DNA of 40,900 nt from an uncultured bacterium (GCA_964619725.1 CAZUFC010000075.1:1-40900), one strand, 5' to 3'; positions 1-37,987 are shown, counted from the stretch's first letter. Notes: generated by a model not told the origin, from the sequence alone. A program made the numbers and translations.

Positions 1-480
1 CGAACACCAACGGATGTCCCCACAAGCACATCATCGCCGACTTTGACTCCCACGCTTTCGCCCACAGAGGAACCGACATTGACGCCTACTAATACACCGA
101 CACGAACACCAACGGATGTCCCCACAAGCACATCATCGCCGACTTTGACTCCCACCCTCTCGCCCACAGAGGAGCCGACATTGACGCTTACTAATACCCC
201 GACCCGAACACCAACGGATGCGCCCACAAGCACCTCATCGCCGACTTTGACTCCCACTCTCTCGCCCACAGAGGAACCGACATTAACGCCCACGAACACT
301 CCGACTCGAACCCCCACGGACGTTCCCACAAGCACCTCATCGCCGACTTTGACTCCAACGCTCTCGCCCACACAGCAACCAACATTAACGCTCACGAACA
401 CTCCGAGCCGGACGCCGACGGATGTTCCTACAGGTACATTGACGCCTACGTCGACCCCCACCCTTTCCCCGACCGAAGAA
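1..480 (+). repeat. Intragenic 102-bp tandem repeat (~4.5 copies)
   Basis: Units resembling CGAACACCAACGGATG start at 1, 103, 205, 307 and 409. Confidence 0.9.
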
Positions 481-630
481 CCTTCATTAATCCCGTCCTA
501 CACGCCAAGCGTTACCTATACTCCAACTCTTATGCCTGTCCCCAGTTTCGATAGTGCAGGCATCGCGTTATTGATTCTCGTGTTAAGCGCAGCGATTCTG
601 TTCTTCAGGATTTCGCATCCAAGGAGTTAA
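1..630 (+). CDS. 3' end of a surface protein: Pro/Thr-rich repeat linker plus IPTL-CTERM-like membrane anchor (5'-truncated by the window edge)
   Basis: Frame is open from base 1. It contains 34-aa P/T/S repeats and ends VPSFDSAG, a hydrophobic helix, then a basic tail (FRISHPRS). Confidence 0.85.
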   Translation, partial: RTPTDVPTSTSSPTLTPTLSPTEEPTLTPTNTPTRTPTDVPTSTSSPTLTPTLSPTEEPTLTLTNTPTRTPTDAPTSTSSPTLTPTLSPTEEPTLTPTNTPTRTPTDVPTSTSSPTLTPTLSPTQQPTLTLTNTPSRTPTDVPTGTLTPTSTPTLSPTEEPSLIPSYTPSVTYTPTLMPVPSFDSAGIALLILVLSAAILFFRISHPRS

Positions 631-1012: not shown

Positions 1013-3820
1013 ATGCACAACAAAAATTCATCAGCGCTCCTGCTGACCGTTCTTCTAGTGTTAATTTTACCCGTAATCGTTCAGGGGGGAACGGTTTACT
1101 TTTCCTTCGGGCTGCACACGGATTTTTATCATTCTTATCGAGGCGACACACCTGACGATGACGGATTCGGTCATGATATCGATGCAATAACGGCGACTTT
1201 GGATATACTTGAGGTTCATCCGGAAGTAAAATTAAGCTGGGAATTCGACAGTTGGCAGACGTTGGAGCAGCGCCTGCCGGAATATGCCCCGGAATTGTTC
1301 GAGAGGATAAAGGCACGGGTAGAGGAAAAGGATGAGGTACGTTTTCAGTCCTGGAACGGGGGGATAGTGACGGCTGAGACGCCTGAGGAGTTTGCAGCCG
1401 GAATCAATATGCAGCGGGAGACATTAATGTCGATCTTCGGAAAAGCGGAGAACGGCGTTTATCCGCAGGAAATGATGCATTCGCCTTCCTTAATCCCAGC
1501 ATATAATGATTTAGGAATCGAATGGGTCAGTTTATTTTACAGCGCGTCGCCTTTTACTGCTTTCAGGCGTTATGCGGAGCTGGAAGGAGCGGACCTCTAT
1601 AATCCTTTATGGTTGGAGACGCCGGACGGGCAGCACAGGATGATCGTGCTTCCGACGTATCATCATGCGGATGTGACTGATTTTATGGGTTTTGCGCCCT
1701 GGGCTCAATATGTTCATATGACGATTGAGGAGGATGTATTGATTTTCGTCGCCTTTGATGCCGACAGCATTTCCTGGGAACTGGTATTCGATATGTTTCT
1801 CTCTGATCTCGAAGAATTGACTTTCGTCGAATTCTGCACGCCGGGGGAATATCTGATGACGCATGAGCCTGAGTCTACGATAGTTCTTCGTCGCGATCTG
1901 GCCGACGGCGCTTTTGACGGTTATCATTCATGGGCGGAAAAACCGATAAATCACGAAATATGGACAGCGATAGATTTCAGCAGATCGGGGGAGAACGACG
2001 CCGAATTCCTGACGAATCGTTTCAGCCTGGAATTACCCGCTGTTGAAGATATACTTGAACAAAACTTCCTGACGAGACTCATAACGCTTAAAACGACGCA
2101 CTTCGGCCTGGCGAATCCTTTCCTGCATCCGGACCGTGTGGAAAAAGCGCGCTTTTATGCCGGTGAAATACGCCGGTTGTCATCCGAAGCGAAAACTTTA
2201 ACGGAAACCGCAGTCCAGCCTCACTTGGCAGAATTATTCGGTGAACCGCCGGCGATGGATTTTCCTGGAACTTTGACACCTTGTTATATTTACCGGGATT
2301 CGCTTTCAGAGGAGTCTGCATTGACGAAAATACCGCTGGAATATACGCAAGGAGAAAGTTATCCCGGCGGAATACGGGTTTTTCAGAACGGGCAGGAAAT
2401 TCCAGGCGGCCTGATCAATGTCGAACACTATGAAGACGGTTCTGTAAAAAAAGCGACCCTGGTTTTTGTTTGCATTTTTGAGGACGATCATGACGATGTC
2501 CTGTGCTGGATAAGTCGCAGTGAAGACCCGGATGTCGAAATTCCGGACTATGGGCTGATCGATACTCAGCCGGATGAATTGAACAACGGACTGATAACCC
2601 TGTCGTTCGATGAGAGTGGATTCCCGGTTTCTTTTATTTTTGATGGAATCGAGTTTGCAGGTGATCCTTTCATTTGTCCCGGAATCGTCTATGCGGAACA
2701 ACATTTTGGTCCTGCAGTCCTGGTTACGGTTGATGAGCCGTTCTCGACTTACGGCAGGGGTTTCCTGCATGAAATTAAACGATGGGGATTTTATGATATT
2801 GATTGTGAAAGCGAGTCCATAACGTCTGAAGTGCAATATCGATTTAGAATATATGCAGGAATCCCAGCATTGGAAATTGAAACGAAAGCCGAGTTTCCCG
2901 AACTTGAAGAACCATGCCTGGAAAAATTTACCGAAGCTGTTCCATTGGGCATCAAACCGGAAATATCAGGTGCAAATCTAAGAGTATGGAAGCATAATTT
3001 CTTCGATGACGTTTCCTATTACGACATCGATGATCCGATAGATACGACGAACAGTCACATCACAGCATCCTGGTGCGCAATAAGCGCAGAAAACAAAGGA
3101 TTATGCCTGGCTTACGATGCGGTCAAAAGAGCTTCACACGCTTTCTGTCCATTGAAAATCATCCGGAACGATCAGCAAAAACTGACCCCCGTCATGAATC
3201 CCTTCGGAACATTCTGGGGCGAACTCCCCTCATACGATGCCAGACGCACCGGTGGAAGCGGCATGGGTGAAACCTTCACACTTTCCGTGACGCCTCATCT
3301 GAGTTCCGCCGCTCCTGCTTATTCAGGACATATGGTCGAATCAGCCGTCCTGGCTTTACCCTATTGCGGCGATGAACCGGCCGAAGCGACAAAAAATACC
3401 GCAGAACTTTATTCGACAAGTCCGAGTTTCATACTAACGGACGAACTTCCGTATATTTCTCCGCAATTGCAAATCAATATGCCGGCGGATTTTTTTGTCC
3501 CCGGCGACATATTCGATTGCCGCATTACATTTGAAAACGAAAACATACCCAGGAGAAACGTCCCGCTGGTCCTGCTTCTGGATATTCAGGGGCAATACTG
3601 GTTCTGGGATGACTGGACACAGGAATTCGATTTTGAATCCATAGACATACCGCCCGGCGAATCGGAAAAAATCATCTTCAATCCAATGGAATGGCCCCAA
3701 ACCGGTAATCAAAAGATGGATAATCTAACCTTTCATGCCGCTCTGCTGAATAACGCCATGACTGCCGTCCTTTCCAATATCGATTCCTTCACTTTTGGAT
3801 TCGGACCCGCCCGTCAATAA
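1013..3820 (+). CDS. Secreted GH57/GH38-like (glycoside hydrolase/deacetylase barrel) protein with the shared C-terminal domain
   Basis: GAGGAG RBS and a signal peptide. N-terminal HTDFYH motif, GVYPQEM and VAFDADS motifs typical of this superfamily. Last ~118 aa are the recurrent C-terminal domain. Confidence 0.65.
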   Translation: MHNKNSSALLLTVLLVLILPVIVQGGTVYFSFGLHTDFYHSYRGDTPDDDGFGHDIDAITATLDILEVHPEVKLSWEFDSWQTLEQRLPEYAPELFERIKARVEEKDEVRFQSWNGGIVTAETPEEFAAGINMQRETLMSIFGKAENGVYPQEMMHSPSLIPAYNDLGIEWVSLFYSASPFTAFRRYAELEGADLYNPLWLETPDGQHRMIVLPTYHHADVTDFMGFAPWAQYVHMTIEEDVLIFVAFDADSISWELVFDMFLSDLEELTFVEFCTPGEYLMTHEPESTIVLRRDLADGAFDGYHSWAEKPINHEIWTAIDFSRSGENDAEFLTNRFSLELPAVEDILEQNFLTRLITLKTTHFGLANPFLHPDRVEKARFYAGEIRRLSSEAKTLTETAVQPHLAELFGEPPAMDFPGTLTPCYIYRDSLSEESALTKIPLEYTQGESYPGGIRVFQNGQEIPGGLINVEHYEDGSVKKATLVFVCIFEDDHDDVLCWISRSEDPDVEIPDYGLIDTQPDELNNGLITLSFDESGFPVSFIFDGIEFAGDPFICPGIVYAEQHFGPAVLVTVDEPFSTYGRGFLHEIKRWGFYDIDCESESITSEVQYRFRIYAGIPALEIETKAEFPELEEPCLEKFTEAVPLGIKPEISGANLRVWKHNFFDDVSYYDIDDPIDTTNSHITASWCAISAENKGLCLAYDAVKRASHAFCPLKIIRNDQQKLTPVMNPFGTFWGELPSYDARRTGGSGMGETFTLSVTPHLSSAAPAYSGHMVESAVLALPYCGDEPAEATKNTAELYSTSPSFILTDELPYISPQLQINMPADFFVPGDIFDCRITFENENIPRRNVPLVLLLDIQGQYWFWDDWTQEFDFESIDIPPGESEKIIFNPMEWPQTGNQKMDNLTFHAALLNNAMTAVLSNIDSFTFGFGPARQ

Positions 3821-7728: not shown

Positions 7729-7739
7729 GCGGCAACAAG

Positions 7740-11232: not shown

Positions 11233-11715
11233 TCATAACAGGCCGGCAACCGCCACGCCGATGCGGACAATGATCGGCCAAACCACAAGCAGGTAAAGGA
11301 TTAAGAGAATAATCCATTTGCGACCAGAAAACAGCTTATGAGCGCCGCTGCCCTGGAACCCTATGCTGAAGCCGAACATGGCTTGCCATAGAATCCCTGT
11401 CCATCCATACTCGCTGAATGCGGCCATGGATAAAGCGTGAACCAGCACGCCGGCAACAATCGAACCGGCAAACATCTTCCCGGTACCCCTGAGGTCTTCT
11501 TTGCGAAAGTGGACAAGCAGATCGACGGCCAGCAACGCTAAAAGCGCTCCCAAACAAATGTCCGTCCAGATAATGATCCAAATGAAATATGACATCCCCA
11601 CTTCAATCGTTGCCGGAAGGATCAAAAACAATCCAACCGAGCCGATCGCATGCCAGATCGCCAAAATAATACAGATTACCCGGAAGACTACAATCCCAAG
11701 CACTTGCTTATCCAT
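11233..11715 (-). CDS. Hypothetical integral membrane protein (4-5 TM)
   Basis: 160 aa and strongly hydrophobic. AAGGAG RBS upstream. Confidence 0.75.
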   Translation of the reverse strand: MDKQVLGIVVFRVICIILAIWHAIGSVGLFLILPATIEVGMSYFIWIIIWTDICLGALLALLAVDLLVHFRKEDLRGTGKMFAGSIVAGVLVHALSMAAFSEYGWTGILWQAMFGFSIGFQGSGAHKLFSGRKWIILLILYLLVVWPIIVRIGVAVAGLL

Positions 11716-11944
11716 GACATTATAACTCCTTCCAAAGCATTAAAAAAGTGCAACCCCGGTTTGATCAGACCCAAAATTTGACATGCAACCCATGCATTTT
11801 TCATTACTTTATTCTGCAGATTCAGATGCAGTATACCTCAACCATGTTTTACATATTGTTAGCCTCTTTTCACCTTCCGTCCACAGCATCTGAGACTGCG
11901 GGAATTTCTAGTTAAGCGAAACGGTTATTCGCGAAGAACAGGCG

Positions 11945-13543: not shown

Positions 13544-14391
13544 TTGTCTCCCCTGCTTCCAATTTAATTTTTTCGTCGACTTTACAATTAAAAAATAAAG
13601 GTATGTTTTGTAAGGCCGACAACGCTTTTGCATTCGACAACAACGCCAGGATTGCGGCTCCCTGATCATTTAAGGCTGGATCGTTTCATACGGATATGTT
13701 CTCATAAACATTATCCGCCCGGCAACTTGAAATTGCTCAAATATTCAATGAACGAGACCGCCATGCCCTATCCTGTTATGCGAATTCGCCGACTCCATCT
13801 GATTTTCATCCAAACAAAATGTTTCTCAAAATAGTAAAACGCTCATTGATTCGGGCAGCATGATAACAGTCATCCGTAAATTAAATGCTCGTGCAGGTAA
13901 GGAGAATATCAGACCTAAACGCTTCTTCTGTTACCTCATGATCATCCGAATGCCCCCCTCCTCCAACTGAAACATTCCGAAGATCGATCGGAATTTCACC
14001 TCCTTCCGCAGATTCATCCGGGATCAAGACGCCCCGACTGTTTAAGACAATCAAATTCGTTCTCTACGGAAAAATTGCTGACAATTCAAATCCCACTTAC
14101 CATATTAAGAAATTTAACGCTGAAAGTCAACGTCAGAGCGGATTCTCGTAAATAATATCGTTCCTCGTCCGGAAGACAAAAAGCTGAAATTATCACTTGT
14201 GATAATTCTGCTTCGTATGACATTTAACCTACGGACCTGCCTGTTTTCCGACCGGAGGATTCAACGAACAGTAATCTGGCTGAATAAAAGCAGGGTATCC
14301 AATCCTCCGGCATCCTTTTCATTGATATTTCCCGCTTCAACGTCTCATTTGCTTTCTTGAAATTTGCAAAGGCGTTAAATTTTCAGCATCA

Positions 14392-16551: not shown

Positions 16552-17976
16552 TCAGTAATAGTCCCATTCGATAACCTGGAGTTCGCCGATCAGAACGAAA
16601 CTCTCCTGCTGGAACATAGCCGAATAGAATTTCAATCCCCCGGCGGCTCCCGCAGCGTCAGGCCATGTAAAATCCAGAACAGATTCCCAGTCTGAGAATC
16701 CCGGAGTAAGCTGCAGACGACGAAAATCCGCTTCCTCGTTCCATGAAGGCCAGAAGAAGAAAACATTAAATGCTTCCAGCGCAATATATTGATCGACAGT
16801 TTGACCGGAACGGATCAGTGAGCGGCATTCCAGAATAAAACTGTCGTATGCGGTGAAGCTGTCGTCGGAAAGTTTTATGTAAAAGCCTTCTTCTCTATGC
16901 ATCGGCGTGGGAGAAGGGGCAGGCGTAGGTGAAGCGCCCGGATCGCAATCAGGCTCGTAGCCCTGATTCACGGTCATTCGATCCAGTTCTCTGACTGTGG
17001 CATAGGGGATGAAGGAACAGGACGGCGCAAATTGATCATAGAAGACGCTTATTTTGGCCGGTTCGGTCAAATATTCCACGGCCAGTACAGGCTTATCGGC
17101 TGCTCTGAACTGTTCAAGCAGCTCTATGACGTCCCATTGCGGGCAATAATCGTTATTTTCATCATCCGGGCCATAAAAAAAGGTGTCCTCTGAACCGATG
17201 CCGTCAATCGCATAAAAGTAAACGGAACGTTGAACCGAGGCTTCCAGCCCCGGATCGGATGCGTCCGGATAGGAATCAGGACTGATTATTCCCGCTCCGT
17301 TCTGCGGCAGAACAAGAAAGTTATTTATTCCTTTCGTCATCTGAGCGTAATGAGAGATATCCCGGACTAACCGTACCATGTCGGCCGGGGATTGACGATT
17401 TGCATCATTGCCGCCGATCTCGTGAGGGCCCCAATATTCGTAAGCATCCACGACATCAAGGTATACGCCGTCAAATCCCTGATCCATTATGCGGTCCAGG
17501 TAACTCTTGTTCGGACCGGAACTCGTTCCGTAAAGAATCTCCCGCCATCCCTCATGCCAGAATCTCACTTTATAATTCCCGGGCCACTCAGGATTGGACG
17601 GTCCCAACCACTCCGGCGCATCGGCATCGGGAATACCGAAAGGAGCTTCATCGTCCCACCAGGCTTTCCAGTAAAACCTGTAATCCTCTGCCTCGCCGAC
17701 GGAAAAATAGCCCAAAACGATCCGGTCGCCGCAACCGCCGCCGCTCCGGATATATTGAATATCGTGAGCGCTGAATTCTCCCTCTTCGCCCCCGTCCGAA
17801 GAATAATCCATGATGACCAGATCAAACAATGATTCGGTTAATTCGCTCAAGCCCTCATAACCCTGAAGCTGATAAGTAAAATCATCGACCGATCCCAGCG
17901 GATAAGCGCGTATTTTTATTCCAAAGAATGGTATGAAAAGCATGCAGGCGATGAATAAGATTGAATGCCGGTTCAT
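16552..17976 (-). CDS. Secreted GH114/TM1410-family (endo-alpha-1,4-polygalactosaminidase-like) protein with the shared C-terminal domain
   Basis: YQLQ, GYFSVGEAEDYRFYW, GFDGVYLDVVDAY and VLPQNG motifs. GGAGG RBS before the ATG at 17976. P/T linker then the C-terminal domain. Confidence 0.85.
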   Translation of the reverse strand: MNRHSILFIACMLFIPFFGIKIRAYPLGSVDDFTYQLQGYEGLSELTESLFDLVIMDYSSDGGEEGEFSAHDIQYIRSGGGCGDRIVLGYFSVGEAEDYRFYWKAWWDDEAPFGIPDADAPEWLGPSNPEWPGNYKVRFWHEGWREILYGTSSGPNKSYLDRIMDQGFDGVYLDVVDAYEYWGPHEIGGNDANRQSPADMVRLVRDISHYAQMTKGINNFLVLPQNGAGIISPDSYPDASDPGLEASVQRSVYFYAIDGIGSEDTFFYGPDDENNDYCPQWDVIELLEQFRAADKPVLAVEYLTEPAKISVFYDQFAPSCSFIPYATVRELDRMTVNQGYEPDCDPGASPTPAPSPTPMHREEGFYIKLSDDSFTAYDSFILECRSLIRSGQTVDQYIALEAFNVFFFWPSWNEEADFRRLQLTPGFSDWESVLDFTWPDAAGAAGGLKFYSAMFQQESFVLIGELQVIEWDYY

Positions 17977-19968: not shown

Positions 19969-21408
19969 ATGAATCGAAAAAGCATCATCACGGCCTCATT
20001 GTTTTCCTTGATTTTCATCATATGGACGAATTTTGAAATCCGTGCTTCCCAGGAGCCTGAATGGGCCATAGAGAATTCTTATACCTATGACATTCAGATT
20101 GACGGATCGGCCAATTTTGAGCAGGGTAACATGGAATTGACGTTAACGGCTGATGACGTGGTTTACGAGGTGGTAGATTTTGGAATCCGCAGTTTTTCGC
20201 ACGGCAGCATGGCGACGCATGAGGTTTACATCGTGAGTTTCAGCGGTTCGGGTTTCGCTTCGGGAACGGCGGACATAACGGAGCCGGTTCAGTTGAATGC
20301 TCCTGTGGAGATCAGGAATGCGCTTTACGAGGGTGAGATGTGGATAACGACGGAAGGATTGGCGACGGCGAAGATTTACCGGCATATCGCCGGTGAGTGC
20401 TGGATCAAGCCGTTCTTCGCCTGGCAATATGCCGGGCCTGTGGACTTGTGGGAAAACGAGGAATATGATCCGCCGCTGCAGGACGTTCAATTTCCCGCAT
20501 CAGTCGGTGATGAGTGGGAGGATGATTTAATACTTTATGCATTCGGACAGATATCGGCGTACCTGGAAATATACGGCATTCCTTTTTACATTAACGAGCC
20601 TTTCGACCAGTCGCAGAATTTTACGCTTCAGGCTGAAAACGAGATTGAGGAATGGAAGAATCAGTGCTGGTCTTACAGGATATTTCATGACGATTTTTAT
20701 TCAAACGCGTCAGAACGTTACTGGTATTGCCCGGAAGCGCTCTGGTTTTCTGCAAAGAACCTGCAGCAGATCACCGTCTCCGGCTCAGGTCTGAATATAG
20801 AATCCCTGGACATGAACCTCACGTCTTACTCTGTAGTAACTCCGACGCCCTATCTTTCACCGACGCCGGGTCCAACTGGAAGCGCGACTCCGGAGGTTAC
20901 GTCAACTCCCAGTTCCACGTCTACATCGACTGTTACTCCGACATGCACTTCTCAGCCTTCCAAAACACCGGATGAAACTCCGGCAGCAACCCTCACGCCT
21001 GAAGATACTGCGCCTACCAATCCGCCGGTAACTCCCACTGCCGGGCCATCTCCGGAACCCGGAACGATAACGGTCGATTTGATGTTGAACCAGGAGCTCT
21101 TCTATGCCGGCGACACGTTTCTCCTTCGATTAAAAATTACGAACAATAAAGCGGATATGACCCTCCTGGAATTCATTCTGCTGGATGTCTACGGCGCTTA
21201 CTGGTATTACGACGGCTGGACTGAACAAGTCGATTATGTCGAACTTTTCATTCCATTCGGATACGATCAGGATGAAACCATACTTGAATTCGAATGGCCG
21301 CCCGATACAGGAGCGGCGGACGACATCAGGTTCTGGAGCGCCCTGGTGAATCCGGTCGGAATGACGCTGGTCAGCAATGTCGATTCGGTCGTTTTCAGCT
21401 ATCGTTAA
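19969..21408 (+). CDS. Secreted hypothetical protein: beta-rich N-domain, P/T linker and the shared C-terminal domain
   Basis: GGAGG RBS, signal peptide MNRKSII..IRA, PT linker and the C-terminal domain from ~21061. Confidence 0.85.
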   Translation: MNRKSIITASLFSLIFIIWTNFEIRASQEPEWAIENSYTYDIQIDGSANFEQGNMELTLTADDVVYEVVDFGIRSFSHGSMATHEVYIVSFSGSGFASGTADITEPVQLNAPVEIRNALYEGEMWITTEGLATAKIYRHIAGECWIKPFFAWQYAGPVDLWENEEYDPPLQDVQFPASVGDEWEDDLILYAFGQISAYLEIYGIPFYINEPFDQSQNFTLQAENEIEEWKNQCWSYRIFHDDFYSNASERYWYCPEALWFSAKNLQQITVSGSGLNIESLDMNLTSYSVVTPTPYLSPTPGPTGSATPEVTSTPSSTSTSTVTPTCTSQPSKTPDETPAATLTPEDTAPTNPPVTPTAGPSPEPGTITVDLMLNQELFYAGDTFLLRLKITNNKADMTLLEFILLDVYGAYWYYDGWTEQVDYVELFIPFGYDQDETILEFEWPPDTGAADDIRFWSALVNPVGMTLVSNVDSVVFSYR

Positions 21409-21430
21409 AAATTCAGCAACGCAGAGATGA

Positions 21431-24271
21431 TCATTCGCTGTACCCGAATGACCAGGAATCCGGTTCCCCGATCATTTCGGAGACGTTCTGATCCGTAACG
21501 GCTCCAAAGAACTGCAGGTTGTAGAGCTGGCCGCAGTCGTCTGGCCAGGTGAAGTTTGAGAGAATAACTTCACAACGGACTCCTGGGTTCCAATGGTCAA
21601 TGACGGTCCAGGAAAGCTCCGGCGGATATTGTTTCCATTCAGGATGAAACCAGTAATACCCCATTCCGATATCGAGTAATACGAACAGCTTGCAGGAATT
21701 ATAGGAAGATTCCGTATGATTATGCAGGATAGCGTTCAACCAGCAGGAATCGCCCGGACAGTAATGATCGGCCGGCATTAAAAGCCTGACGCCTAATTCT
21801 ACGGGGTGAGTCGCTGTCGGAGCGAAAGTGGGTGATATTTGAGTGGGTATAAGCGTGGCAGTTGTTGCAGGTGAGGCGCTGGGATAGGTTAAAGGCGTTT
21901 CTGTGGGAGGATTAGTCACAGGGACAGGGGTATCTGAGGGTATCGGCGTAAAAGACGGTTCAGGCGTTGCAGGCTGAGTCGGAAAGGGCGTTGGGATGGC
22001 AGCCGGCAGGTAGTGGAAACCCATATCGACCGTAGAGGCGTCCGTAACATGGTCGGTCCTGGTTGTGAACATATCCAGGCAGATTTCACCCGCCGAACCC
22101 GGAAAACAGATCAATCCGGCAAGCTCGCTTCCAGCGTCTAAACAGGGACTGTCCGACGCCTGGCCGGACACGGTTTGACTCAGATAAAAACCGCCCAGGG
22201 AACCTGCGACGAACAGCGGATCGACGTCAATGTTCCCTGTTCCCGGAAAACCGCCCTCAACATTACAATAGCAGACTTCAATATCGCCGGACTGGACTAT
22301 GATTTCTTCAGGCGCATCATTCCAAAGGATGCAGTTGGTGAGCGTCAGGGGAGAATTATAGGACATAACGCCGCCGCCTGACAACTCCGCGCTGTTCTCC
22401 GTAAAAGTGCAGTTAGTGAGTATCCCGGTGGAGCCGTAAGAGCTGTAAAGACCGCCGGCATAGTCGCTTGAGACGTTTCCGGCGATAAGGCAGTTGCTAA
22501 CCTGCGGAGCGGATTCAATGCCGAAAAACAAACCTGCTCCAAACGCTCGCGGCATTCTGAATTGGGCTTGCTTGACGTCGACCGCCCCTGGCGCATCACC
22601 GTAACCGCTTATAAAGTAAGGATAAACTGCTGTCGCATTATTATCAATTATAACGCAGTCCGTGATCACTGGAGAGGCCAGCTCACAGGCTATGCCGCCT
22701 CCGCATGCCTCGGCGGTGTTATTGTCGATCATGCATTCTGTTATTAGCGGTGCGGCATAGCGGGCGCAACATATACCCCCTCCGGTCCGGCCATAGCAAT
22801 CTGTAATACGGCAGCCGATGATGTCGATATAACTTTCAAGGCAATATATCCCGCCGCCCCAGGAACCGTATCCGTTACGAACGGTAACTTCCCGTATCCG
22901 TGCATCGTTGTCGAATATTGCAGCAATGCCCATGTTGATGCCTTCGGCATCCAGTATGGTCGATTCAGCGCTCCAGCCCTGTAATGTAACGAAGGGCAAA
23001 ACCGGCAGGGGAAATCTCTCTCCGGTCCAATCGGCAGTATAAGTTCCCGAATCGAGGTGAATCGTAATGGGATTATCCTCAGAACCCAATATCATACTGC
23101 AGGCGTGATGAATGGTGCGGAAGGGATCACAGTATGAAAGACCGCTGTTGTCGTCGTTGCCGTAGGGTGACACGTAAACGTCCTGAGTGATTGGTTCGAG
23201 TTCTGATGTGCAGTTTTCGAGATCGAATGATACTTGGGGAGTAACGTAATAATCGGAAGGAAAATAACCGGCAAATACGTTCCATTCTGCCATAACAGGC
23301 TGAGCATAAACGCCCGGCCGGTATAAATCCGCCCCTGATCCCGCCCGGTTGCCCTGGAAATAGCATGCATCCTCAGGCGCGTTTCCGATAAAGGGAACGG
23401 AGCTGCTGTCCATACAACATATAGCGCCGCCGAAGGAAGCTGCATTACCGCTGAATGCGGTCCCGGTTATTGTCGGCGATGAAGCGTAATAGAGGCTGAT
23501 TGCGCCTCCATGGACCAGCGCCTGGTTATTCGAAAACAGGCAATCGATAATGACCGGGGAAGAATTGTAACAATGCAGACCGCCGCCGCAATTTTCCATC
23601 GAATATTGATGGGTTTCGTTACCGGTTATGATGCAACGTTCAAGAACAGGCCAGGCATAATCGCAGCATATTCCGGCGCCCAGACGCCTGGCGGCGTTGC
23701 CTGATATTATGCAATCCGTCAATACGGGCGCTGCCGAGGCGCTGCAGGATACTCCGCCGCCGGAGCTGTCGGCCCAGTTCGCAATAATCCGGCACCAGCC
23801 GACCTCGGCCGAAGATTGGCTGAAAGCCATACCGCCGCCGCACGTATTGCTGCTGCAAGCGGTTATCAAACAATCCGTCACAGTGGGCGATGCCGCTTCG
23901 CAAAAAATCCCGCTTCCCCTGCTGCTGCAGCTCCCATGAAGGATTGTAAATCCCGAGAAAACAGAACCTGGACCTTCCTGGTTATGGAAATACGCTCCAC
24001 GGCCCTGAAACTCACAATCCAGCACAGAATACGTCGATCCGTTAGCCGACATCACGGTTATCTCTTTCCCGCAGAAATCCAGGTCCCTGTTGCCTTCACC
24101 GCTGTAAACTCCGTCCGCCGTCAATACCGTGTCGCCATTCAAGGCAGCATCAATCCCGGACTGTATATTCGGCTGATCCCCCGGAACATGAATGACTGCA
24201 GCGAAGCAATGTCCCGCTGACAATGGGAATACAAAAAACGTCGTTAACAGGAGCTTCTTCAGCTTTTTCAT
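21431..24271 (-). CDS. Secreted right-handed parallel beta-helix (pectin-lyase fold, Pmp-like GGA(I)/FxxN repeats) protein with DUF1565-like segment and the shared C-terminal domain
   Basis: Signal peptide, IHVPGDQPNIQSGIDAA, many N-x-A-x-x-GGG repeats, VYVSPYGNDDNSG, PT linker and the C-terminal domain. Confidence 0.88.
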   Translation of the reverse strand: MKKLKKLLLTTFFVFPLSAGHCFAAVIHVPGDQPNIQSGIDAALNGDTVLTADGVYSGEGNRDLDFCGKEITVMSANGSTYSVLDCEFQGRGAYFHNQEGPGSVFSGFTILHGSCSSRGSGIFCEAASPTVTDCLITACSSNTCGGGMAFSQSSAEVGWCRIIANWADSSGGGVSCSASAAPVLTDCIISGNAARRLGAGICCDYAWPVLERCIITGNETHQYSMENCGGGLHCYNSSPVIIDCLFSNNQALVHGGAISLYYASSPTITGTAFSGNAASFGGAICCMDSSSVPFIGNAPEDACYFQGNRAGSGADLYRPGVYAQPVMAEWNVFAGYFPSDYYVTPQVSFDLENCTSELEPITQDVYVSPYGNDDNSGLSYCDPFRTIHHACSMILGSEDNPITIHLDSGTYTADWTGERFPLPVLPFVTLQGWSAESTILDAEGINMGIAAIFDNDARIREVTVRNGYGSWGGGIYCLESYIDIIGCRITDCYGRTGGGICCARYAAPLITECMIDNNTAEACGGGIACELASPVITDCVIIDNNATAVYPYFISGYGDAPGAVDVKQAQFRMPRAFGAGLFFGIESAPQVSNCLIAGNVSSDYAGGLYSSYGSTGILTNCTFTENSAELSGGGVMSYNSPLTLTNCILWNDAPEEIIVQSGDIEVCYCNVEGGFPGTGNIDVDPLFVAGSLGGFYLSQTVSGQASDSPCLDAGSELAGLICFPGSAGEICLDMFTTRTDHVTDASTVDMGFHYLPAAIPTPFPTQPATPEPSFTPIPSDTPVPVTNPPTETPLTYPSASPATTATLIPTQISPTFAPTATHPVELGVRLLMPADHYCPGDSCWLNAILHNHTESSYNSCKLFVLLDIGMGYYWFHPEWKQYPPELSWTVIDHWNPGVRCEVILSNFTWPDDCGQLYNLQFFGAVTDQNVSEMIGEPDSWSFGYSE

Positions 24272-26959: not shown

Positions 26960-29209
26960 ATGAAGAAAGCAATTTTGACGGCTGTTGCCTTAATAATGGT
27001 TCAATGTTCAGGACCGCTTTTTGCCGGGATTCCCCATACAATAAATTATCAGGGCTTTTTAACGGATGATTCCGGCGTACCCCTGGAAGGAGAATTTGAT
27101 TTCGCTTTTTCGATATGGGACCAGGAAACTGGCGGAACTGAATTATGGTCGGAGAATCAGCCTGATGTAGCGGCAAACGGCGGACTTTTTCATGTCATCC
27201 TTGGTTCGGTGGATACTCCTGTCGATCTTGAATTCGATGACATATTGTGGTTGGAAATCGAAGTAGAAGGAGAGACGACGGCGCCCAGGCTGGAACTGAC
27301 CAGCGTGGGGCAGGCATTGAATGCGGAGGATGTTTACGACGTAGATATACATCCCCGCAGTATAAGCATTCAAGGGTATGGCATAGTTGTAAATTCTTCG
27401 GGCGAATGGACCGGAGAAACGGCGGGTTTGACGGGTTCGACCGGTCCGCAGGGCGACACAGGTCCGATGGGTCCCGCCGGTGATACGGGTTTAATAGGTC
27501 CCCGGGGTGATACGGGTCAGACAGGTCCTGCCGGCGATACAGGTCCGATGGGGCCTGCCGGCGACACGGGTTCAATGGGTTCTCAGGGCGACACAGGTCC
27601 GATGGGTCCCGCCGGTGATACGGGTTTAATAGGTCCCCGGGGTGATACGGGTCAGACAGGTCCTGCCGGCGATACAGGTCCGATGGGGCCTGCCGGCGAC
27701 ACGGGTTCAATGGGTTCTCAGGGCGACACAGGTCCGATGGGTCCCGCCGGTGATACGGGTTTAATAGGTCCCCGAGGTGATACGGGTCAGACAGGTCCCG
27801 CCGGCGACACAGGTCTGACCGGTCCGCAGGGCTATACGGGTCCGGAAGGTCCTCCTGGAGCCACTGGTCCTGTAGCCGGTTCGAACGGTCAACTGATTTA
27901 TAACGATGACGGCAGCGCTGCCGGCGCTGAAGTTTACTATAATGAAGACGACGGCAAAATCGGAATCGGCACGAGTAGTCCTGGCGGCAATTTAGAAGTT
28001 TATAACGGATCGAATCATTCTATTTTGAAGATTCACACAGACGGCGCCAACAAAAGCGCTTTCCTGAACCTGGATGCTCCGGGTTACAATCCGTGGCAGA
28101 TTTACCACTACAGCGGTAACGGAAAACTGCACATCAAGGGGAACAACGGGGTCAGGATGACTTTTGAACAGACCGGAAAAGTGGGAATAGGAAGTGAAGC
28201 GGCTTGGAGCGGAACATTATCCGTCAGCGGCAATGTTTCCATCGGCAGCGGTTACAACACGCTGGGCACTTCTGCCCCGAGCAATGGACTGATCGTTCAG
28301 GGAGATGTGGGTATAGGAACATCAAATCCCTCAAGCGACCTGGAAGTATACAACGGTTCTGATAATTCCATTCTGAAAATTCATTCGGACGGCGCTAACA
28401 GGAGCGCATTACTTTACCTGGATGCTCCCGGTTACAGCCCATGGCAGATTTATCATTACAGCGGCAATGGAAAAATGCACATCAAGGGGAACAACGGCGT
28501 CAGGATGACTTTTGAGCAAACTGGGCGAGTCGGCATCGGCAGCGAGGCGGCTTGGAGCGGAACATTATCCGTCAGCGGCAATGTTTCGGTCGGCAGCTCT
28601 TACAACACACTCGGAACATCGGCGCCCGGCAACGGCATGATCGTTCAGGGCAACGTAGGTATCGGCACGAAAAGTCCCAACGCCAAATTAGACGTAAACG
28701 GAACGGTCAAAGCCGTTGAATTCCAGGGCGACGGATCAGGACTGACCGGTTTGCCCGGCGGAGCGAACGTTCATTACTTCAACGAATCGGAAACCACGCA
28801 ACACACCATTAGCGGAACATCGTGGACCGACCTCCACACATGGACTCTGACCACCGGTAATTCCGATGCAAGGCTGCTGATGATCGCCCTGCGCGGTGAA
28901 TTCGGACACTCCGGTACAGGCGAAAATTATTATAACCTGGAAATCTCAGGTACGAATTTTGGAACGAAATACTGGGCTGGCGTCGGCGAATACCTATGGG
29001 GATACGAAACTGAACCGGACGACAGCCTCTTCACAGTTCCGACCGGCGCCGGCGGGGGAACATACGACAAGAGACGAGCACAATGGTTACTGGATGATGA
29101 TGTTACGGGAGACGATTCATATACCATCACTATTCGAGGGAAAAACGGCGCTGCCGACCAGACATATATGCGGAACGCAGTGTTGACCGTTGTGTGGGTT
29201 GAAGAATAA
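26960..29209 (+). CDS. Secreted collagen-like / tail-fibre-like adhesin
   Basis: Signal peptide, INYQG N-domain paralogous to the 13543 gene, ~50 G-X-Y triplets, GIGT repeats and a distinct C-terminal head. Confidence 0.9.
27449..27815 (+). repeat. 135-bp near-perfect tandem repeat (~2.7 copies) in the collagen region
   Basis: CAGGGCGACACAGGTCCGATGGGTCCCGCC recurs at 27449, 27584 and 27719. Confidence 0.9.
27962..28660 (+). repeat. 348-bp (116-aa) internal duplication
   Basis: GIGT..P...LEVYNGS units start at 27962 and 28310, and the next GIGT is at 28658. Confidence 0.85.
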
Positions 29210-30988: not shown

Positions 30989-33900
30989 CTATCTTCGGTC
31001 CGGGGGGCGCTTAAAAACGCCGAAAACCATGAGAGCGCTCAGAAACAGAAGCAGTATACCGGTTCCGAAGAGTCCGGTCACCGGAATGGGACCTGCTGTT
31101 GGGATCGCTGTCAGGGTGGGAGTGACAGTGGGGACGAAGGTCAGTGTTGGGGTCGGTATAGTAGTGGGCGTATCGGTGGGCGTTACAGTAGGAATGTTTG
31201 TTGGTGTGTCAGTGGTTGTTGCGGTGGGTGTGTTGGTGGGCGTTTCAGTTAATGTTGTGGTGGGCGTGACGGTGGGTGTGCCGGTGGGCGTGACGGTGGG
31301 TGTTTCTGAGGGGGTGGTGGTCGCCGTGGGCGTAGGAGGATCCAGCGGCGAGGCGCCAGTGCTGCCGATGGTGAACTGTCCGAAGCTATTTATGCTGTCG
31401 AATGTTACCGTCGTTTCCGTCACTGCTGCAGCGCCGGTTGCGATCTCCATCCATTCGTCGTCGCTGTTGAAGCCGCGGTGGTAGAGAATCAGGTTCGCCG
31501 CATCCTCCGGGTCAAGGCAGCCGTAGGGGAGGGAGAAGGTCATTTCGGCGGAAAACTCACCGGGATCAGTAAAGCCGTGATCCACCCAATATCGATCCGG
31601 CAAAACATTGCCGCTGCCCCCGGGCGCGGGCAGGATGTTCGGCGCAAGGGAGAGTTGGTTATTGAAAAGGTCCACGGCATAATCGTACGGATTACCGGTA
31701 TCATCAATGGTGACATTGCCCAGTGTCACGACTTGATTCTGAACATCATGCATATAATCGCAGGTACCGCTCCCACAGGGGACAGTGGACGTGATCCAGG
31801 AGGTTTCATCCATGTTTTCAAGGGTGCAGTACAGGCCGGTGGCGCTATCCCGGGAGGTTGATCCCGATCCTTCGTTGAACTGCCAGTAGCCGACCAAACC
31901 CGGTTGAAAATCGTCAAAAGTACGATGCATATATTCGCGGACCTGGTCCCCGGTACGGCCTGTATTCCATAATCGGACCTCATCGATTTTACCGTCAAAG
32001 TGCCTGCCTTGCATATGGATATTTTCACCGATCGTTACCGGATAATTGTGCCGTGAAATCGTACCTGTGGTCGGAATGGAAACATCCAAGACTCCGTCAA
32101 TATAGATGTATTTCATTTGTCCGTCATAAACAGCGGCAACATGATGCCATTGGCCGTCGTTGACATTGATATAGCCTCGCAACTCGCCATTTGATAAACC
32201 ATAAGTGTAGAACATAATATTGTCGGTTTGATTGTATCTCATAAGTTTCCACGAACCTACATTTCTTGTAACAATTGCCTGCCAGGGTTTGGTAAAGGAA
32301 TCCACACGAATCCAAGCCTCCACCGTCATGGCGTCAGTGAAACTGTAACCTGCTTCGTTGGGTAGAACCGCATAATCGTCGACACCGTCAAAATCCAGGG
32401 CTGTGCCGGGAACCTGATCTAGATAGCTGTCCTGTAGTACGAAATTCTGAACGGTTGTATTATGCGCGCTGACTGCAATCCCGGATGCGGTTTCAAATAC
32501 GTATGCCGGTGCAATCACTACCATATCCAAGTTTCCGGGATAACATGGGATAGTATATGTCCCGTCCGGTCCCGTCTGATCCGAAAAGGAGGTCCCGTTT
32601 ACAGTTACCGCTGCACCGTTGATGGGCGTCATACTGCTGTCTGTCACCGTTCCGGTTATGTAACCGTTGATATATCCCGTAAATCCGAAGGAATCGATAC
32701 TCCACCCGCAACCGGTCAGCCCGGCGTTTGTCGGTCCCATTCCGAACCTGATTTGAACGTCGGGACCGGCAGCATACTCGGCAATGTCATATTCCACACA
32801 TTCCCAATGATCCGCCTCCATCCAAGTTGTATTTTCCCATATTCGATGCCAGGCGGAACCGTCGTACACTTCAAGGCAAGCATTATCATACATTGCATGA
32901 TCCACGCCCAGCCATCGCTGGAATACCAGGTGAATATCCACACTGTCGGAGAAATCGTAAATCGGGCTGTACAGCCATTCCGTCTCGGACATGTTGTCCG
33001 GGTAGCAGCCGCCGATTTCATACCCCAGAACCGTTCCTTCACCGGACACATCATAATCCGGATCATGCCCGTACATACAACCGGTGCCGGCAACGGCAGC
33101 GCCCCACTGCCAGCCGTTACCGCTTGCGGCGGGATCAAGCGTCCAGGCGGAAGTGGGATCAGAGGTGAAATCTTCGTAATGGAGCAGTGCTCGGGTGAGG
33201 ACGTCAAGTGATTGCTGTTCGTCGGTTGCGTCAGAGGATACACTAACAACGAAAGAATCCGTTCCCGAATATGAAGGTAAGGTTGTTACCGCCAGGAAAT
33301 CTGCAGACGAGCATGGGTCCACCTGGATCTCGGTAATCGGCGAATAAGCCGGGTCGGTGAATTGGACCGGCCAAAGGTTATCAGTGTGGGTAAACGTATA
33401 CGTGTCCGTGAGAGAACCGCAATTGGCGATGGTCAGGACATGTGCAACCGTATCATATATGCTGCCCCATTTCTCGTCCATGTCGCAATTGAGTTCGAAA
33501 CAATTGACTGGATATTCTTCAATACCGATGCCATCAACGGCGACTGAACAGATATCCCAGGATACCGTAGCGGCGCGGAAACGGAAGGAGACGACCTGAT
33601 CCTCATAGGGGCAGAGATTAATGGTCGCTTCATTCCAACCGTCACCCTGGGAGCCTTCCCGCAACCAGATAGTGTTCCAGGTTTCGCAGTCGTCTTCAGA
33701 AATATCCACATACAGACCTTGGTCCGTGTCGACATACATATAGTAGTTGAACGTCAGAAGGGCGGGTCCGATGACGGATAAATCCAGACAAACGCCGTCC
33801 AGAAGGGCTGTCGAGGATGCACTTCCTTCAGAGTAAACGCTTAAATAATAGTCGCCGTCTGGAGTGGCTGAAGGGCCGATCGGCCAGATTGGCGATGTTC

Positions 33901-36900
33901 CCTGGCGGCGTATCCAGTCTAAATCATCAAACGGAGAGTTGTTCCAGGCGCCCAATCCGGACTCGAAGCTTGCATGGTAGGGGAATTCCGTAATGTTTTG
34001 AAGACAGCAATATTCGGCAATCGGCGTCGGCGTTTGTGGTATTTCCGTCGGCGGAACCGTGGTTGTCGGCGTGGGTGTCAGGCTGGGTGTAGGACTCGGT
34101 CCGTAGAGGGGTGAATCGCCGGAGCTGCCGACGGTGAATTGTCCGAAAGCATTGACGTTGTCAAAGGTCACTGTGGTGGCGGTTACGTCGGATGCGCCGG
34201 AAACGATTGTCGACCAAGAGCCGTCGCTGTTAGCCGGGCGATGATACAGGGCCAGGTTTGCAGCATCCCCTGTTTCCAGATAACCGGTGGGCAAGGTTAA
34301 GGTTATATTAGCTGAAAACGTTCCGGGATCGGAAAATCCGTAATCCACCCAATACCTGTCCTCGAGGACATAGTTATTGCCGCCGGGAGAGGGCAGCAGG
34401 TTCGGCGTGCAACCGATTTCTGTGTTGAAAATATCCACCGCCGTATCATACGGGTCCCAGGTATCATCAATGACCACATTGCCAAGGGTAACGGATCGAT
34501 TCTGAACGCTGTGTTCATAAACACATGTTCCGTTTCCTATGGGTACGGTGGAAGCAATCCAGGCCGAAGCATCCATGTTCTCCAATGAGCCTTCAATTCC
34601 AAGGCAATCAACGGCGCTGTCGCCGGAACCTTCATTAAATTGCCAGTATCCCACCAGGTCCGCATCAAACTCCTGTATAGGAAGACTCAGATGCATTAAC
34701 TCACGGATTCGGTCTGCAGTCCGAGCCGTACACCAGATACGCACTTCATCCATTTTCCCGTCAAAATGCCGTCCTGTTCCCTCGCCGTTCTCGCCGAACA
34801 TCACGCTATAATCATTGGTGTTAATATTCCCGTCGGCAACGGTTGATGCGTCCGCAACGCCGTTGATATAAAGGTATTTCATAGCGCCGTCATAGACACC
34901 TGCAACATGATGCCATTGTCCGTCGGTCAGGCTTGCCGCACTTGGTAAGTCAACGTTAGATAAACCGCTGGTACTGAAACAGATCATATCGGTTTCAGCA
35001 TACCTGGCCAACCGCCATGCGTTGTCGCCTTTGGTGATGATTGCCTGCCATGGCTTGGAAAAGGAATCCACCCGGATCCACGCCTCTATTGTCATGGCAT
35101 CTGTGAAGTCGAAGAGGTATTCATCCGATACGGCGACATAATCATCGTCACCGTCAAAATCCAGGGCATGACCGGGATAATCCGCGACATAAATATCCGG
35201 TAGAGAAACATCTTGGAACGTTGTGTCTTTTTCATACACGGTGAGGTCGTATACGTAAGCATCTTTGTAGCCTGTTCGTCGAGCGATCAGGTCAACGCTT
35301 CCGGGAACGCACGCGAACGTAAATGCACCGTCGGATTCGGTAATGTCCGAATAGGGTTCGCCGATCACCCTCACGGTGGCGCCGGTTATGGGTGCGCCCT
35401 GAGTATCGGTAACGGTTCCGGAAATATATCCGGCGATCACGCCTGTAAATCCGAAGGAATCGAAATTCATTCCACCGGCGTGCAAGTGACTGTCACCGGA
35501 TGTAACGCCGAAGCGTATCCGTGTGTCCGAACCGGCCGCATATTCTGAAATGTCATAAACGCATTCGGTCCATTCCGTATCGCAAAATGCATAGCAATAT
35601 TCCCATATTCGATTCCAGGCTTCGCCGTCATAGACTTCAATAAAATGGTCATCATCATAGGCTGTTAACCAGCGCATGAAAACCAGGTGAATATCAGCGA
35701 AACCGGTAAAATCATACGAGGGACTCGTTCCCCATTCCGGTGTTTCTATGTCAGAACGTACACAATTACCGATCGAAAACCCGACGATTTTCCCTTCACC
35801 GGTATAATCATGATCCGGATCATTGCCGTTGTGACAACCGTGACTGCCAACGGCGGTACCCCATTCCCAACTGATCCCGGAGGGAATAAAGGTCCAGGTG
35901 GAGGACACGTCGTTTGCAAAATCGTCATAATATAAGTAAGCTCGACCGGTCAGTGCTGCCGTATCCGCGGCCGTCGAGGTCATTGATTCCGCCGTAATAT
36001 TCACTGTTTCTACGTCCGTGTCTTCCGATAATACCACTACCCGGAATTGTTCGGTGAAGTACGGTGCGACTGATATATGTTCCAGGGGTGAATATGCCAT
36101 GTCCGTGATTAATATAGGGGATCTGCCGCCGGAATAATCGAGATGAAATGTTTCAGGTTGGAATCCGCAGTTGGTGATGTTAACCACGTGTCTAACACCT
36201 CCCAACGGCCCGTATTTAACGGTTGTTTCCGATTCTGATGTAAGGGTGACGCCGGGTGCGGTGACGTCTTCCACTAAAATGTTATCAACGGCGATGTCGT
36301 CCCATATAATTGCACTGGTAAAATCTCCCAGAAAACGGATGGCAATAGTCCGGTCCGTGTATTGACTCAAATCTACAGCAGCAAGGTTCCACCTTCCCCC
36401 CTGGTCGCCGACGAATTGACAAACGGTTGTCCATGTTTGGCACTCGTCTTCTGAAATAGCTACCTTCAACCCCGGACTCCCGCCGAATATAGCCGCTATG
36501 GAATACCGGAATGTCAACCAGGGGTGCTCCATTCCTGTCAGATCAAAACAAACTCCGTCTAATTGCAGAACTATAGGTACGTAGTATACAAATTGATAAC
36601 TGTAATTGAGATAATAATAACCCTCCTGCGCGCAGGGAGGTCTCCCGAAACCGGGCGCTCTTCCCGACCGGACTTCCCAATCTGCATCGTCAAACGGTGA
36701 ATTGAGCCAGTATCCCAAACCGGACTCAAAACTTTCCGTGTACGGAAATGATGTGACTGTCTCCCAACAGCAGTAATCAGGGAAAGGCGTAGGAGTCGGA
36801 CTCGGGATAGAGGTTGCCGTTGGGGTCGGCGTCGGTTGCTTTAGAAGAGAAGTGCCGGAACTGCCGATGGTGAACTGGCCGAAGGAATCAACACCGTCGA

Positions 36901-37987
36901 ATGTCACCGTTGTCGCCGTAACGTCTGACGCGCCGGTGACGATTTCCGACCAGGCGCCGTAGTCGTTGAAGGCACGATTGTATAGCCTCAAGCCTGCAGC
37001 GTCCCCTGTGTCAAGGTATCCGACCGGAAGCGTGAATGTGATTTGACATGAAAACACGCCGGGATCGGTAAAGCCGTGAACAACCCAATATCTGTCCTCC
37101 AGCACATTGTCGCTGCCGCCGGGGGAAGGCAGGAGGTTCGGCGCTAGGGCGAGTTCAGCGCTGAACAGGTCCACAGCAGTGTCGTACGGATCTGCTGTGT
37201 CTTCAATAATCACATTACCCAGCATGACGGATTGATTCTGCACCCCGCTCTGAAAATCACACGTACCGCTGCCGACAGTAACCGTCGATGCCGTCCAGTT
37301 CGACTCGTCCATATTGGTCAGAGCGCCGTCGTTTTCTCCGGCGCTGTCTTCGGCGACCGTCCCGCTTCCGTCGTTGAACTGCCAGTACCCCACGAGGTCC
37401 GTTTCGTCGCCCTGAAGCGTCAGATGCATGGTCTCGCGGACCTGGGCTCCGGTTCGCGCCCCGCTCCAGATGCGCACTTCCTCGATTTCACCGTCAAAGC
37501 TCCTGCCGGTTATTTCCAAGTTCTCACCGAACGCAACCTGGTGACTGCTGTCGGGAATGCTGCCGATAACTTCCGTCGAACCGTCCAATCACCCGTCCAC
37601 ATACAGATATTTCCAGGAGCCGTCAAACACCGCAGCCACATGATGCCACTGCCCGTCGTTGACCTCAGCGCTTCCATCGAGGTCTTCGTTTGAAAGGCCG
37701 GTTGTGCCGAATGAAAGCGTGTTCGAAACCCCGTATCGATGGAGACGCCAGGAGGAATCACCCTTGGTGATAAGCGCTTGCCATTCTTTGGTAAACGAAT
37801 CAACCTTGATCCAAGCTTCCACCGTCATGGCAGCAGCAAAATCAAACGCTGGTTCATTGGGGATAATGACGTAATCGTCAATCCCGTCAAAATCCAGGGC
37901 TGTCCCAGGGGTGCCGGCCGCCGCCGATGTTAGTATGACCGTGGCCGCTGTAGTAAAAAATATAAGTGCGATCATGATACGTTTCAT
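30989..37987 (-). CDS. Giant (~2330-codon) surface adhesin: 3 LamG, 2 MAM, 2 cleaved-adhesin-like and 2 carboxypeptidase-regulatory-like domains, PT linkers and an IPTL-like anchor, interrupted by an in-frame TGA at 37589-37591
   Basis: GGAGG then MKRIMIAL signal peptide at 37987. ORFs 37589..38029 and 30989..37588 are contiguous in frame (YVDG*LDGS). The ALDFDG.DDY module starts near 37900, 35170 and 32400. Confidence 0.8.

Follow-up and report, generated by a model that had tools for sequence, protein, structure and literature searches.

Four secreted proteins encoded on a 40,900-nucleotide stretch of DNA from an uncultured bacterium (GCA_964619725.1, CAZUFC010000075.1:1-40900; here called the window) end in the same domain of about 115 residues, the C-terminal domain (CTD) that is the subject of this analysis. 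The window is a complete 40.9-kb contig (C75) of a 9.17-Mb metagenome-assembled genome of 344 contigs (completeness 90.9%, contamination 6.5%), which we refer to as G000. This genome encodes 225 copies of the CTD, most of them at the extreme C-terminus of exported proteins of very different kinds, and homologous proteins of related genomes carry a dockerin or a membrane tail in the same position. We propose, with moderate confidence, that the CTD is a surface-docking (anchoring) module with a putative receptor in the cell envelope.

A shared terminal domain on four unlike secreted proteins had been predicted from the window alone, and the four copies were found where that prediction had placed them. 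They align over approximately 115 columns with 20-33% identity to the first sequence and with invariant D, L, W, G, W-P, F and A positions. The four proteins (P0001-P0004) have the passengers that had been described for them, namely a weak match to glycoside hydrolase (GH) family GH57, a GH114 domain, a region of no family, and a beta-helix (Beta_helix, NosD, Chlam_PMP) that lacks an autotransporter barrel. Their translations contain a Pro/Thr linker before the CTDs of P0002-P0004 and none before that of P0001, and signal-peptide-like N-termini are visible by eye in all four, in P0002 and P0003 from an internal methionine (near 17976 and 19969). A hidden Markov model (HMM) built from the four domains, the search that the original prediction had proposed, identified 222 domains in 221 frames of G000 (E ≤ 1e-3; copies in G000 were counted in six-frame, stop-to-stop reading frames). 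Because a model of four sequences recovers this many domains, the similarity lies far beyond chance. A second round of searching gave 225 copies in 224 frames, with genes spread over 124 contigs.

The position of the domain is strongly constrained. It ends within 5 residues of the stop codon in 208 of the 225 copies and within 15 residues in 215, and two copies share a frame in only 1 of 224 cases. The claim that the domain is C-terminal therefore holds as a rule and fails for a small minority: more than 40 residues follow the domain in five copies, of which two stand directly behind the signal peptide (N-terminal to FGE-sulfatase-type and 5'-nucleotidase-type passengers) and three are internal, and rare internal copies likewise occur among database representatives. 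These two N-terminal and three internal copies argue that the CTD is an autonomous module. A signal-peptide-like start was detected by a crude heuristic in 171 of 201 CTD frames of at least 300 residues, compared with 364 of 1000 control frames. Proline, threonine and serine make up at least 40% of the 40 residues before the domain in 136 of 210 CTDs, compared with 13 of 1000 control positions.

The CTD is an all-beta domain of approximately 113-118 residues. AlphaFold2, supplied with a 31-sequence alignment, gave an eight-strand beta-sandwich with a mean pLDDT of 98 and a pTM of 0.88, and the domain is thus predicted to fold as an immunoglobulin (Ig)-like beta-sandwich. With a median pI of 4.05 and a net charge of -13 it is an acidic domain, a property shared by the passengers, and its content of F, W and Y is 17.7% against 11.3% in the passengers. 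Conservation across 216 copies peaks at F-x-(P)-G-D-x-F-x-L...N, L-D-V-Y-G-x-Y-W-F-W-P-x-W-T, F-x-W-P, F-W-G-A and a final F-G-Y; the N-terminal strand pattern 'F-x-P-G-D-x-F-x-L ... N' is one that we take to resemble CARDB. Neighbouring residues, and with them both faces, are conserved in several strands, including the Y-W-F-W-P-x-W run, and this adjacency suggests a conserved surface besides the conserved core, which may represent a shared interaction surface.

Searches of the four isolated CTDs against Pfam and NCBIfam gave no family match at E ≤ 10, in agreement with the suggestion that the family is undescribed; a DUF936 match at 0.13 was discarded as meaningless. Foldseek against the PDB returned Ig-like and E-set sandwiches only, with a porphyran-binding module as the best match (8wae, E 2.3e-4). 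TM-scores ranged from 0.5 to 0.69, the highest being for Vibrio RbmA; CARDB ranked 40. VIA-align against 48,161 chains gave a best Z of 9.9 for a GH66 N-domain, with RbmA (9.7), Spo0M (9.3) and macroglobulin domains also present, and no function-specific structure match was found among the Foldseek and VIA results, whose generic matches include 8wae, 3idu, 4kkq/4be5 and 5axg. The CTD model therefore has the beta-sandwich fold of CARDB, E-set and carbohydrate-binding module (CBM)-like domains (3idu, 8wae, RbmA 4be5, GH66 N-domain 5axg), but the likeness is one of overall structure and is generic (TM 0.5-0.69, Z up to 9.9), and no Pfam match at E ≤ 10 places the domain in any of these sequence families. 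A search of PDB sequences with the 31-sequence profile matched LRP YWTD propellers (best E 0.0024); these were rejected as chance matches through a Y-W-x-D-like motif, because a propeller blade is not a sandwich. An ESM Atlas search with the CTD returned unnamed clusters only. Overall, the CTD has no confident match to a characterised family, seldom lies internally and is generally accompanied by a signal peptide.

The taxonomic range of the domain is narrow, as had been foreseen. A profile search of 1.84 billion representative proteins gave 2479 matches at E ≤ 1e-3 and 2121 at E ≤ 1e-10, and the CTD lies at the C-terminus in nearly all of the best 150. We examined 14 species genomes of the candidate phylum CSSED10-310 (G000-G013, families f1-f7). 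Eleven of these, belonging to families f1-f4, contain between 58 and at least 150 matches each, and none was found in the other three (f5-f7; 9.2, 5.5 and 6.1 Mb; 93, 96 and 87% complete). A related-locus search with a narrowed CTD alignment found four loci. By these matches, the CTD appears confined to one clade of the phylum; since the carriers form a single block of families (f1-f4), any clade-specific gene would co-vary with it. Address modules present in many copies at the C-terminus are a well-known kind, and the CTD family appears unrelated in sequence to those already known and is unnamed in Pfam and NCBIfam. The sole paper devoted to CSSED10-310 is a genome announcement (PMC8248873); it contains no reference to the domain and predicts the cells to be Gram-negative. 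In the literature on sorting domains, cohesin and dockerin in candidate phyla, the domain is likewise absent from the titles and opening lines of abstracts of 12 of the 688 papers listed. Several CTD matches in related genomes contain single in-frame TGA or TAG codons. A single copy also occurs on a 15.3-kb contig (L031) of a 7.2-Mb genome titled Verrucomicrobiota; its neighbours have no clear affinity to G000, and mis-binning and transfer are both possible.

The cargo is very diverse, as the prediction of a tag on varied passengers had implied. From the 199 CTD frames that reach 300 residues or more and lie on contigs other than that of the window, we annotated 55 chosen at random. These include ten peptidases (three C25, three M14, and one each of S8, C1, S15 and C39-like), four carbohydrate-related proteins (GH123, GHL10 with Amidase_3, CBM96, CBM30), seven beta-helix/PMP proteins, four BNR/sortilin proteins, nine others (FGE-sulfatase, LTD, LVIVD, FG-GAP, amidohydrolase, endo/exonuclease-phosphatase, DUF4397, AhpC-TSA and CarboxypepD_reg/SdrD-like) and 21 proteins without a family. 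Outside G000, 70 of the best 150 representatives added C11, PAD_porph, PETase-like, VWA, Kelch and DJ-1 domains, with 31 of the 70 lacking a family; none of these carried dockerin, cohesin or Por_Secre_tail at E ≤ 1e-6, a cut-off that would miss weak dockerins. Judged by these family assignments, the cargo seems too diverse for a substrate-specific module.

The relationship of the CTD to other C-terminal tags provides the main argument for docking. G000 contains a second class of tag in approximately 207 frames, in which a Pro/Thr linker is followed by an [IV]P[AST]x motif, then by a hydrophobic helix and finally by a basic tail. The 224 CTD frames have zero overlap with these 207 helix-tail frames, with the 25 frames that contain a dockerin and with the 34 that contain a cohesin. 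Across the phylum, the tags replace each other on homologous proteins. Among homologues combining M14 and CarboxypepD_reg, the terminal module is a CTD in G000, G001, G009 and G010, a Pfam dockerin in G005, G006, G007 and G008, a cohesin in G003 and VPAL plus a helix in G012, a genome that lacks the CTD. Five of the six C25 proteins of G000 end in a CTD and one in a helix tail; copies in G001, G002 and G010 end in a CTD, a G012 copy ends in VPTL plus a helix, and 15 of the 18 C25 homologues in family f3 share a frame with a dockerin, among the dockerin matches listed (150 of 270). Scaffoldins take part as well. One in G005 comprises a signal peptide, five tandem cohesins and a C-terminal CTD, and three dockerin-bearing genes (LTD, CBM56-like and M14) are encoded at distances of up to about 7 kb from its gene; one in G007 comprises two cohesins and a CTD. 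Because homologous M14 proteins, C25 proteins and scaffoldins end in one or the other, the CTD appears to fill the slot of a dockerin or membrane tail on enzymes and that of a membrane tail on scaffoldins.

The original prediction had left outer-membrane export and envelope docking side by side as roles for the domain. Docking fits the observations better and export is less favoured, because homologous enzymes of sister lineages carry a dockerin or transmembrane tail, scaffoldins carry the CTD, and a few copies are N-terminal or internal. From this pattern we infer binding to a receptor at the cell surface, and the following sequence of events can be envisaged. The N-terminal signal peptide would export the protein, which would reach the cell surface by a route independent of the CTD. 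There the folded domain, on its flexible Pro/Thr linker, would bind non-covalently to a candidate envelope receptor, either an outer-membrane protein or a surface glycan. The cargo held on the cell in this way would comprise peptidases, glycosidases and beta-helix adhesin-like proteins, together with complete cohesin scaffoldins in some species, and the CTD would occupy the slot otherwise taken by a dockerin, by an SLH domain or by a membrane tail at the C-terminus. The nearest parallel on scaffoldins is with their anchors (SLH, type II dockerin, and sortase or membrane tails). In Gram-positive cellulosomes the C-terminus of the scaffoldin is the place of the anchoring module, and the CTD stands at the C-terminus of the multi-cohesin scaffoldins of G005 and G007, where those of G000 bear a membrane tail. 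The CTD differs from these anchors in lacking SLH similarity (no Pfam match) and in belonging to a diderm organism. Seven secretin and six Omp85 matches in G000 indicate that the organism is diderm, and its CTD target consequently cannot be a Gram-positive wall polymer.

Several observations weigh against docking. Neither the machinery searches of G000 nor the neighbourhood of the G005 scaffoldin yielded a receptor; approximately 20 kb around that gene encode, among others, dockerin proteins, a CoA ligase and a histidine kinase, with no obvious receptor among the products. The route by which CTD proteins cross the outer membrane has no assigned component, only the secretin and Omp85 matches being listed. 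The tag swaps demonstrate the same position only, not the same working. The matches to the fold are generic, the best Z of 9.9 being near the stated background of 7-8, and the top Foldseek match is a carbohydrate-binding module. The background of the signal-peptide heuristic is high (36%). Finally, a C-terminal bias of 96% with a tail of at most 5 residues exceeds what simple binding modules usually show and is the typical behaviour of terminal sorting signals.

This terminal bias, together with the high copy number and the Ig-like sandwich, would be explained if the CTD were an export-and-attachment signal, recognised by a dedicated outer-membrane secretion system that evolved separately as an analogue of type IX secretion, with the CTD perhaps cleaved and the cargo then linked to the surface. 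We consider this reading rather unlikely. The CTD has parallels with the type A tails of the type IX secretion system (T9SS; TIGR04183/PF18962 Por_Secre_tail). Those tails are also C-terminal Ig-like beta-sandwiches, present in many copies per genome and restricted by lineage, and they occur on C25 and M14 peptidases, PAD-type deiminases and beta-helix proteins. C25 gingipain-like, PAD_porph, M14 and beta-helix proteins are type IX cargo in Porphyromonas, so that the cargo of the CTD mirrors that of the known system. Homologues of the P0004 passenger in other phyla carry PF18962 in 24 of 119 cases (and dockerin in 5 of 119). In addition, 12 of the 14 genomes lack TIGR04183 tails, an absence that would leave the slot free for the CTD. 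The two exceptions are G006, with a single tail, and G009, with ten; the latter genome is 69% complete in 520 contigs, its ten tails lie on separate contigs (those fetched being 2.7-6.4 kb; L047, L050-L059), and they are likely to be contamination of the bin.

Sequence comparison gives no support for kinship with type IX tails, in line with what the original prediction had judged from the appearance of the domain. No TIGR04183 or TIGR04131 match to the CTD was obtained in the NCBIfam scan at E ≤ 10, and hhalign of the 31-sequence CTD alignment with 11 true TIGR04183 domains from G009 and G006 gave a probability of 0.3%. The CTD extends over approximately 115 residues compared with approximately 72 model positions for type A tails, and it is acidic whereas the T9SS tail ends in basic residues. 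Solved T9SS C-terminal domains are seven-stranded Ig-like sandwiches and the CTD model has eight strands; no T9SS C-terminal domain appeared by title among the printed Foldseek and VIA matches, but a structural likeness may nevertheless exist. The type IX machinery was likewise not found. SprA (TIGR04189) gave no match in G000, G001, G005, G006, G009 or G010, nor in any control genome; GldM_1st gave none in G000, its sole control match (Caulobacter) being under the cut-off; and the one 22-bit PorP_SprF match in G000 is better explained as TraF_2, for which it scores 60.6 bits, PorP_SprF having no control match. With controls that gave no match above the cut-off, absence of the T9SS machinery is likely but not proven. 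Sortase was not found in G000, where its control was positive, and Slam/SlipAM was not found there with a silent control. The two N-terminal and three internal copies also speak against an export signal, as do the homologous enzymes of sister families, which carry a dockerin or membrane tail and no CTD. In its most explicit form, the export reading would make the CTD the tag of a novel outer-membrane export-and-attachment pathway that arose independently of type IX in one CSSED10-310 clade and served more than 200 proteins per cell, cohesin scaffoldins included, with its translocon or receptor among clade-specific genes that have no assigned function; we regard this as unlikely.

Another explanation, which we judge quite unlikely, is that the CTD resembles in its action a CBM or RbmA, a matrix protein of Vibrio, and attaches its cargo enzymes and scaffoldins to particles, to the cell walls of prey or to the extracellular matrix of the organism itself rather than to its envelope. 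The structure searches are favourable to it, given the top Foldseek match to 8wae (E 2.3e-4) and the scores for RbmA (TM-score 0.69, the best obtained; VIA Z 9.7). The enrichment in aromatic residues (17.7% against 11.3%) and the conserved aromatic run are compatible with glycan binding, though not specific to it, and internal or N-terminal copies do occur. Cellulosomal scaffoldins, moreover, classically carry a substrate-binding module. On the other hand, a single specificity would have to suit peptidases, nucleases and phosphatases, glycosidases, sulfatase-modifying enzymes and adhesin-like proteins alike, and no Pfam CBM matches the sequence. Tandem copies are confined to 1 of 224 frames. 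Such modules usually combine freely with anchors, whereas the CTD never co-occurs with a dockerin or membrane tail in G000 and in fact replaces the membrane tail of scaffoldins.

The presence of cohesins in the same genomes raises a variant of docking, in which the CTD would be a second, non-dockerin ligand of clade-specific cohesins and would load proteins onto anchored scaffoldins. G000 encodes 56 cohesin domains in 34 frames. Eight of its proteins are scaffoldins with 2-5 tandem cohesins (Pfam cohesin confirmed on three of the eight), of which seven are flagged by the membrane-tail pattern and the eighth ends in a hydrophobic stretch. Each scaffoldin gene adjoins a gene for a giant protein with a C-terminal cohesin-like domain and a dockerin, and a scan of three of these giants identified each as a beta-helix protein. 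The subtype to which the cohesins of the G000 scaffoldins belong (alignment A5) occurs in 10 of the 11 CTD carriers and in none of the 3 non-carriers, and cohesins outnumber Pfam dockerins by 53:11 in G000, 6:1 in G001 and 7:1 in G002. Both observations would suit a further cohesin ligand. The co-distribution, however, reflects one clade and so amounts to a single evolutionary event, and G010 has 106 CTD matches with no A5-type cohesin and one Pfam cohesin. A more sensitive profile detects 25 dockerin-like frames in G000, and the cohesins are accounted for because 20 of these 25 are on cohesin-bearing giants, often beside scaffoldins. The scaffoldins of G005 and G007 carry the CTD themselves. 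We therefore regard a cohesin-binding role as highly improbable.

Nor does the CTD match either of the partner families. It has no Pfam match to cohesin (PF00963) at E ≤ 10, and hhalign of its alignment with a G000 cohesin alignment gave a probability of 4.6% over 28 columns. The resemblance to type I dockerin (PF00404) is one of arrangement, both being linker-borne C-terminal address modules that are mostly terminal, reside on diverse secreted enzymes and take the same position on homologous M14 and C25 peptidases in the phylum. They differ in that the CTD is an all-beta domain of about 115 residues whereas dockerin is a duplicated calcium-binding helical module of about 60; true dockerins are readily detected in the phylum, but the CTD has no PF00404 match, and the cohesins of the phylum already have dockerin partners. 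Pfam dockerin and cohesin occur in all 14 genomes, and dockerins are numerous only in f3, with 21-55 per genome. That C25 and M14 peptidases carry them there points to a complex that breaks down protein rather than cellulose. The cohesin-dockerin loci of G000 are on contigs C8, C97, C20, C154, C64, C2 and C15 (loci L128, L129 and L131), with a G005 locus at L145, and a full cohesin-dockerin system is thus present in a diderm uncultured phylum.

The helix-tail class represents an alternative tag within the same genome, on proteins homologous to those that carry the CTD. The names PEP-CTERM and IPTL-CTERM are applied to sorting signals with a helix and basic tail. These are short membrane-spanning signals processed by exosortase-type enzymes, whereas the CTD is predicted to be a folded soluble domain. 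Helix-tail proteins of G000 include some of 12092, 8482 and 6399 residues, and the window itself provides two examples. The Pfam PEP-CTERM model does not match the helix-tail class, and no PEP-CTERM motif was found in the 14 genomes, the motif being short and its control silent. One exosortase-family (EpsH) match is present (G000:C134:13003-13455); it probably serves the helix-tail class rather than the CTD and may be the processing enzyme of that class. Upstream of the giant helix-tail protein of the window (P0005), an in-frame TGA (37589-37591, minus strand) separates a 146-residue Laminin_G_3 frame (37589-38029) from the TTG start of P0005, and the sequence LYVDG spans this codon; sequencing error, pseudogene and recoding are all possible.

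In an uncultured phylum, most of the degradative secretome bears the CTD, including peptidases, glycosidases and adhesin-like proteins. As there is at present no annotation name for the domain, these proteins are read as unanchored 'hypotheticals', and with a name for it, several thousand proteins in the databases could be grouped at once as surface-addressed. The domain offers a handle on how a diderm bacterium that seems to lack type IX secretion may display enzymes. The phylum also provides what may be a natural experiment in interchangeable anchoring modules, in which peptidase-loaded cohesin-dockerin scaffoldins stand on a CTD or on a membrane tail. A receptor, if found, would supply a new protein-display pair for biotechnology, and were export the true role, the domain would represent a new secretion pathway.

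Features of the window are given in Table 1. The interval 21061-21797, singled out in the original prediction, covers two CTDs because it comprises the tails of two convergent genes, P0003 on the plus strand and P0004 on the minus strand.

Table 1. Features of the window that relate to the CTD and to the helix-tail class (coordinates counted from the first nucleotide of the window)
Feature	Position	Strand	Evidence
3' gene end cut at contig start; long Pro/Thr repeat, VPSF, hydrophobic helix, basic tail	1..630	+	second helix-tail example in window
P0001 signal peptide and passenger (weak Glyco_hydro_57 match)	1013..3460	+	translation, Pfam
P0001 CTD	3461..3817	+	translation, alignment, HMM E 2.8e-48
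P0002 CTD, GH114 protein	16555..16905	-	translation, alignment, HMM E 6.7e-46
Short Pro/Thr/Ser linker of ~13 aa before P0002 CTD	16906..16944	-	translation
P0002 signal peptide and GH114 passenger; likely start Met 17976	16945..17976	-	Pfam; start picked by eye from signal-peptide-like stretch
P0003 signal peptide and passenger without Pfam family; likely start Met 19969	19969..20832	+	start picked by eye
Pro/Thr/Ser-rich linker of ~76 aa before P0003 CTD	20833..21060	+	translation
P0003 CTD; copy modelled by AlphaFold	21061..21405	+	translation, alignment, HMM E 1.4e-48, model pLDDT 98, eight strands
P0004 CTD, beta-helix/PMP-like protein	21434..21805	-	translation, alignment, HMM E 1e-48
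Pro/Thr-rich linker of ~68 aa before P0004 CTD	21806..22009	-	translation
P0004 signal peptide and right-handed beta-helix passenger (Beta_helix, NosD, Chlam_PMP, DUF1565)	22010..24271	-	translation, Pfam
P0005, giant LamG/MAM/CarboxypepD_reg repeat protein; ends in Pro/Thr linker, IPVT, hydrophobic helix, basic tail	30989..37588	-	translation, Pfam

Other genes of the window include a MacAB-TolC-type efflux operon (TolC-like OEP, HlyD-type adaptor, ABC ATPase and MacB/FtsX permease) at 4254-8960 on the plus strand, which adjoins P0001 and for which no link to the CTD was seen. Three small to medium frames occupy 11233-13669 on the minus strand, one with a Peptidase_S74 match and two without a Pfam match; Peptidase_S74, the endosialidase chaperone domain, is typically found in the tail fibres of phages and in certain surface fibres. 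A 749-residue protein encoded at 26960-29209 on the plus strand contains collagen triple-helix repeats (Pfam Collagen, E 7.6e-23).

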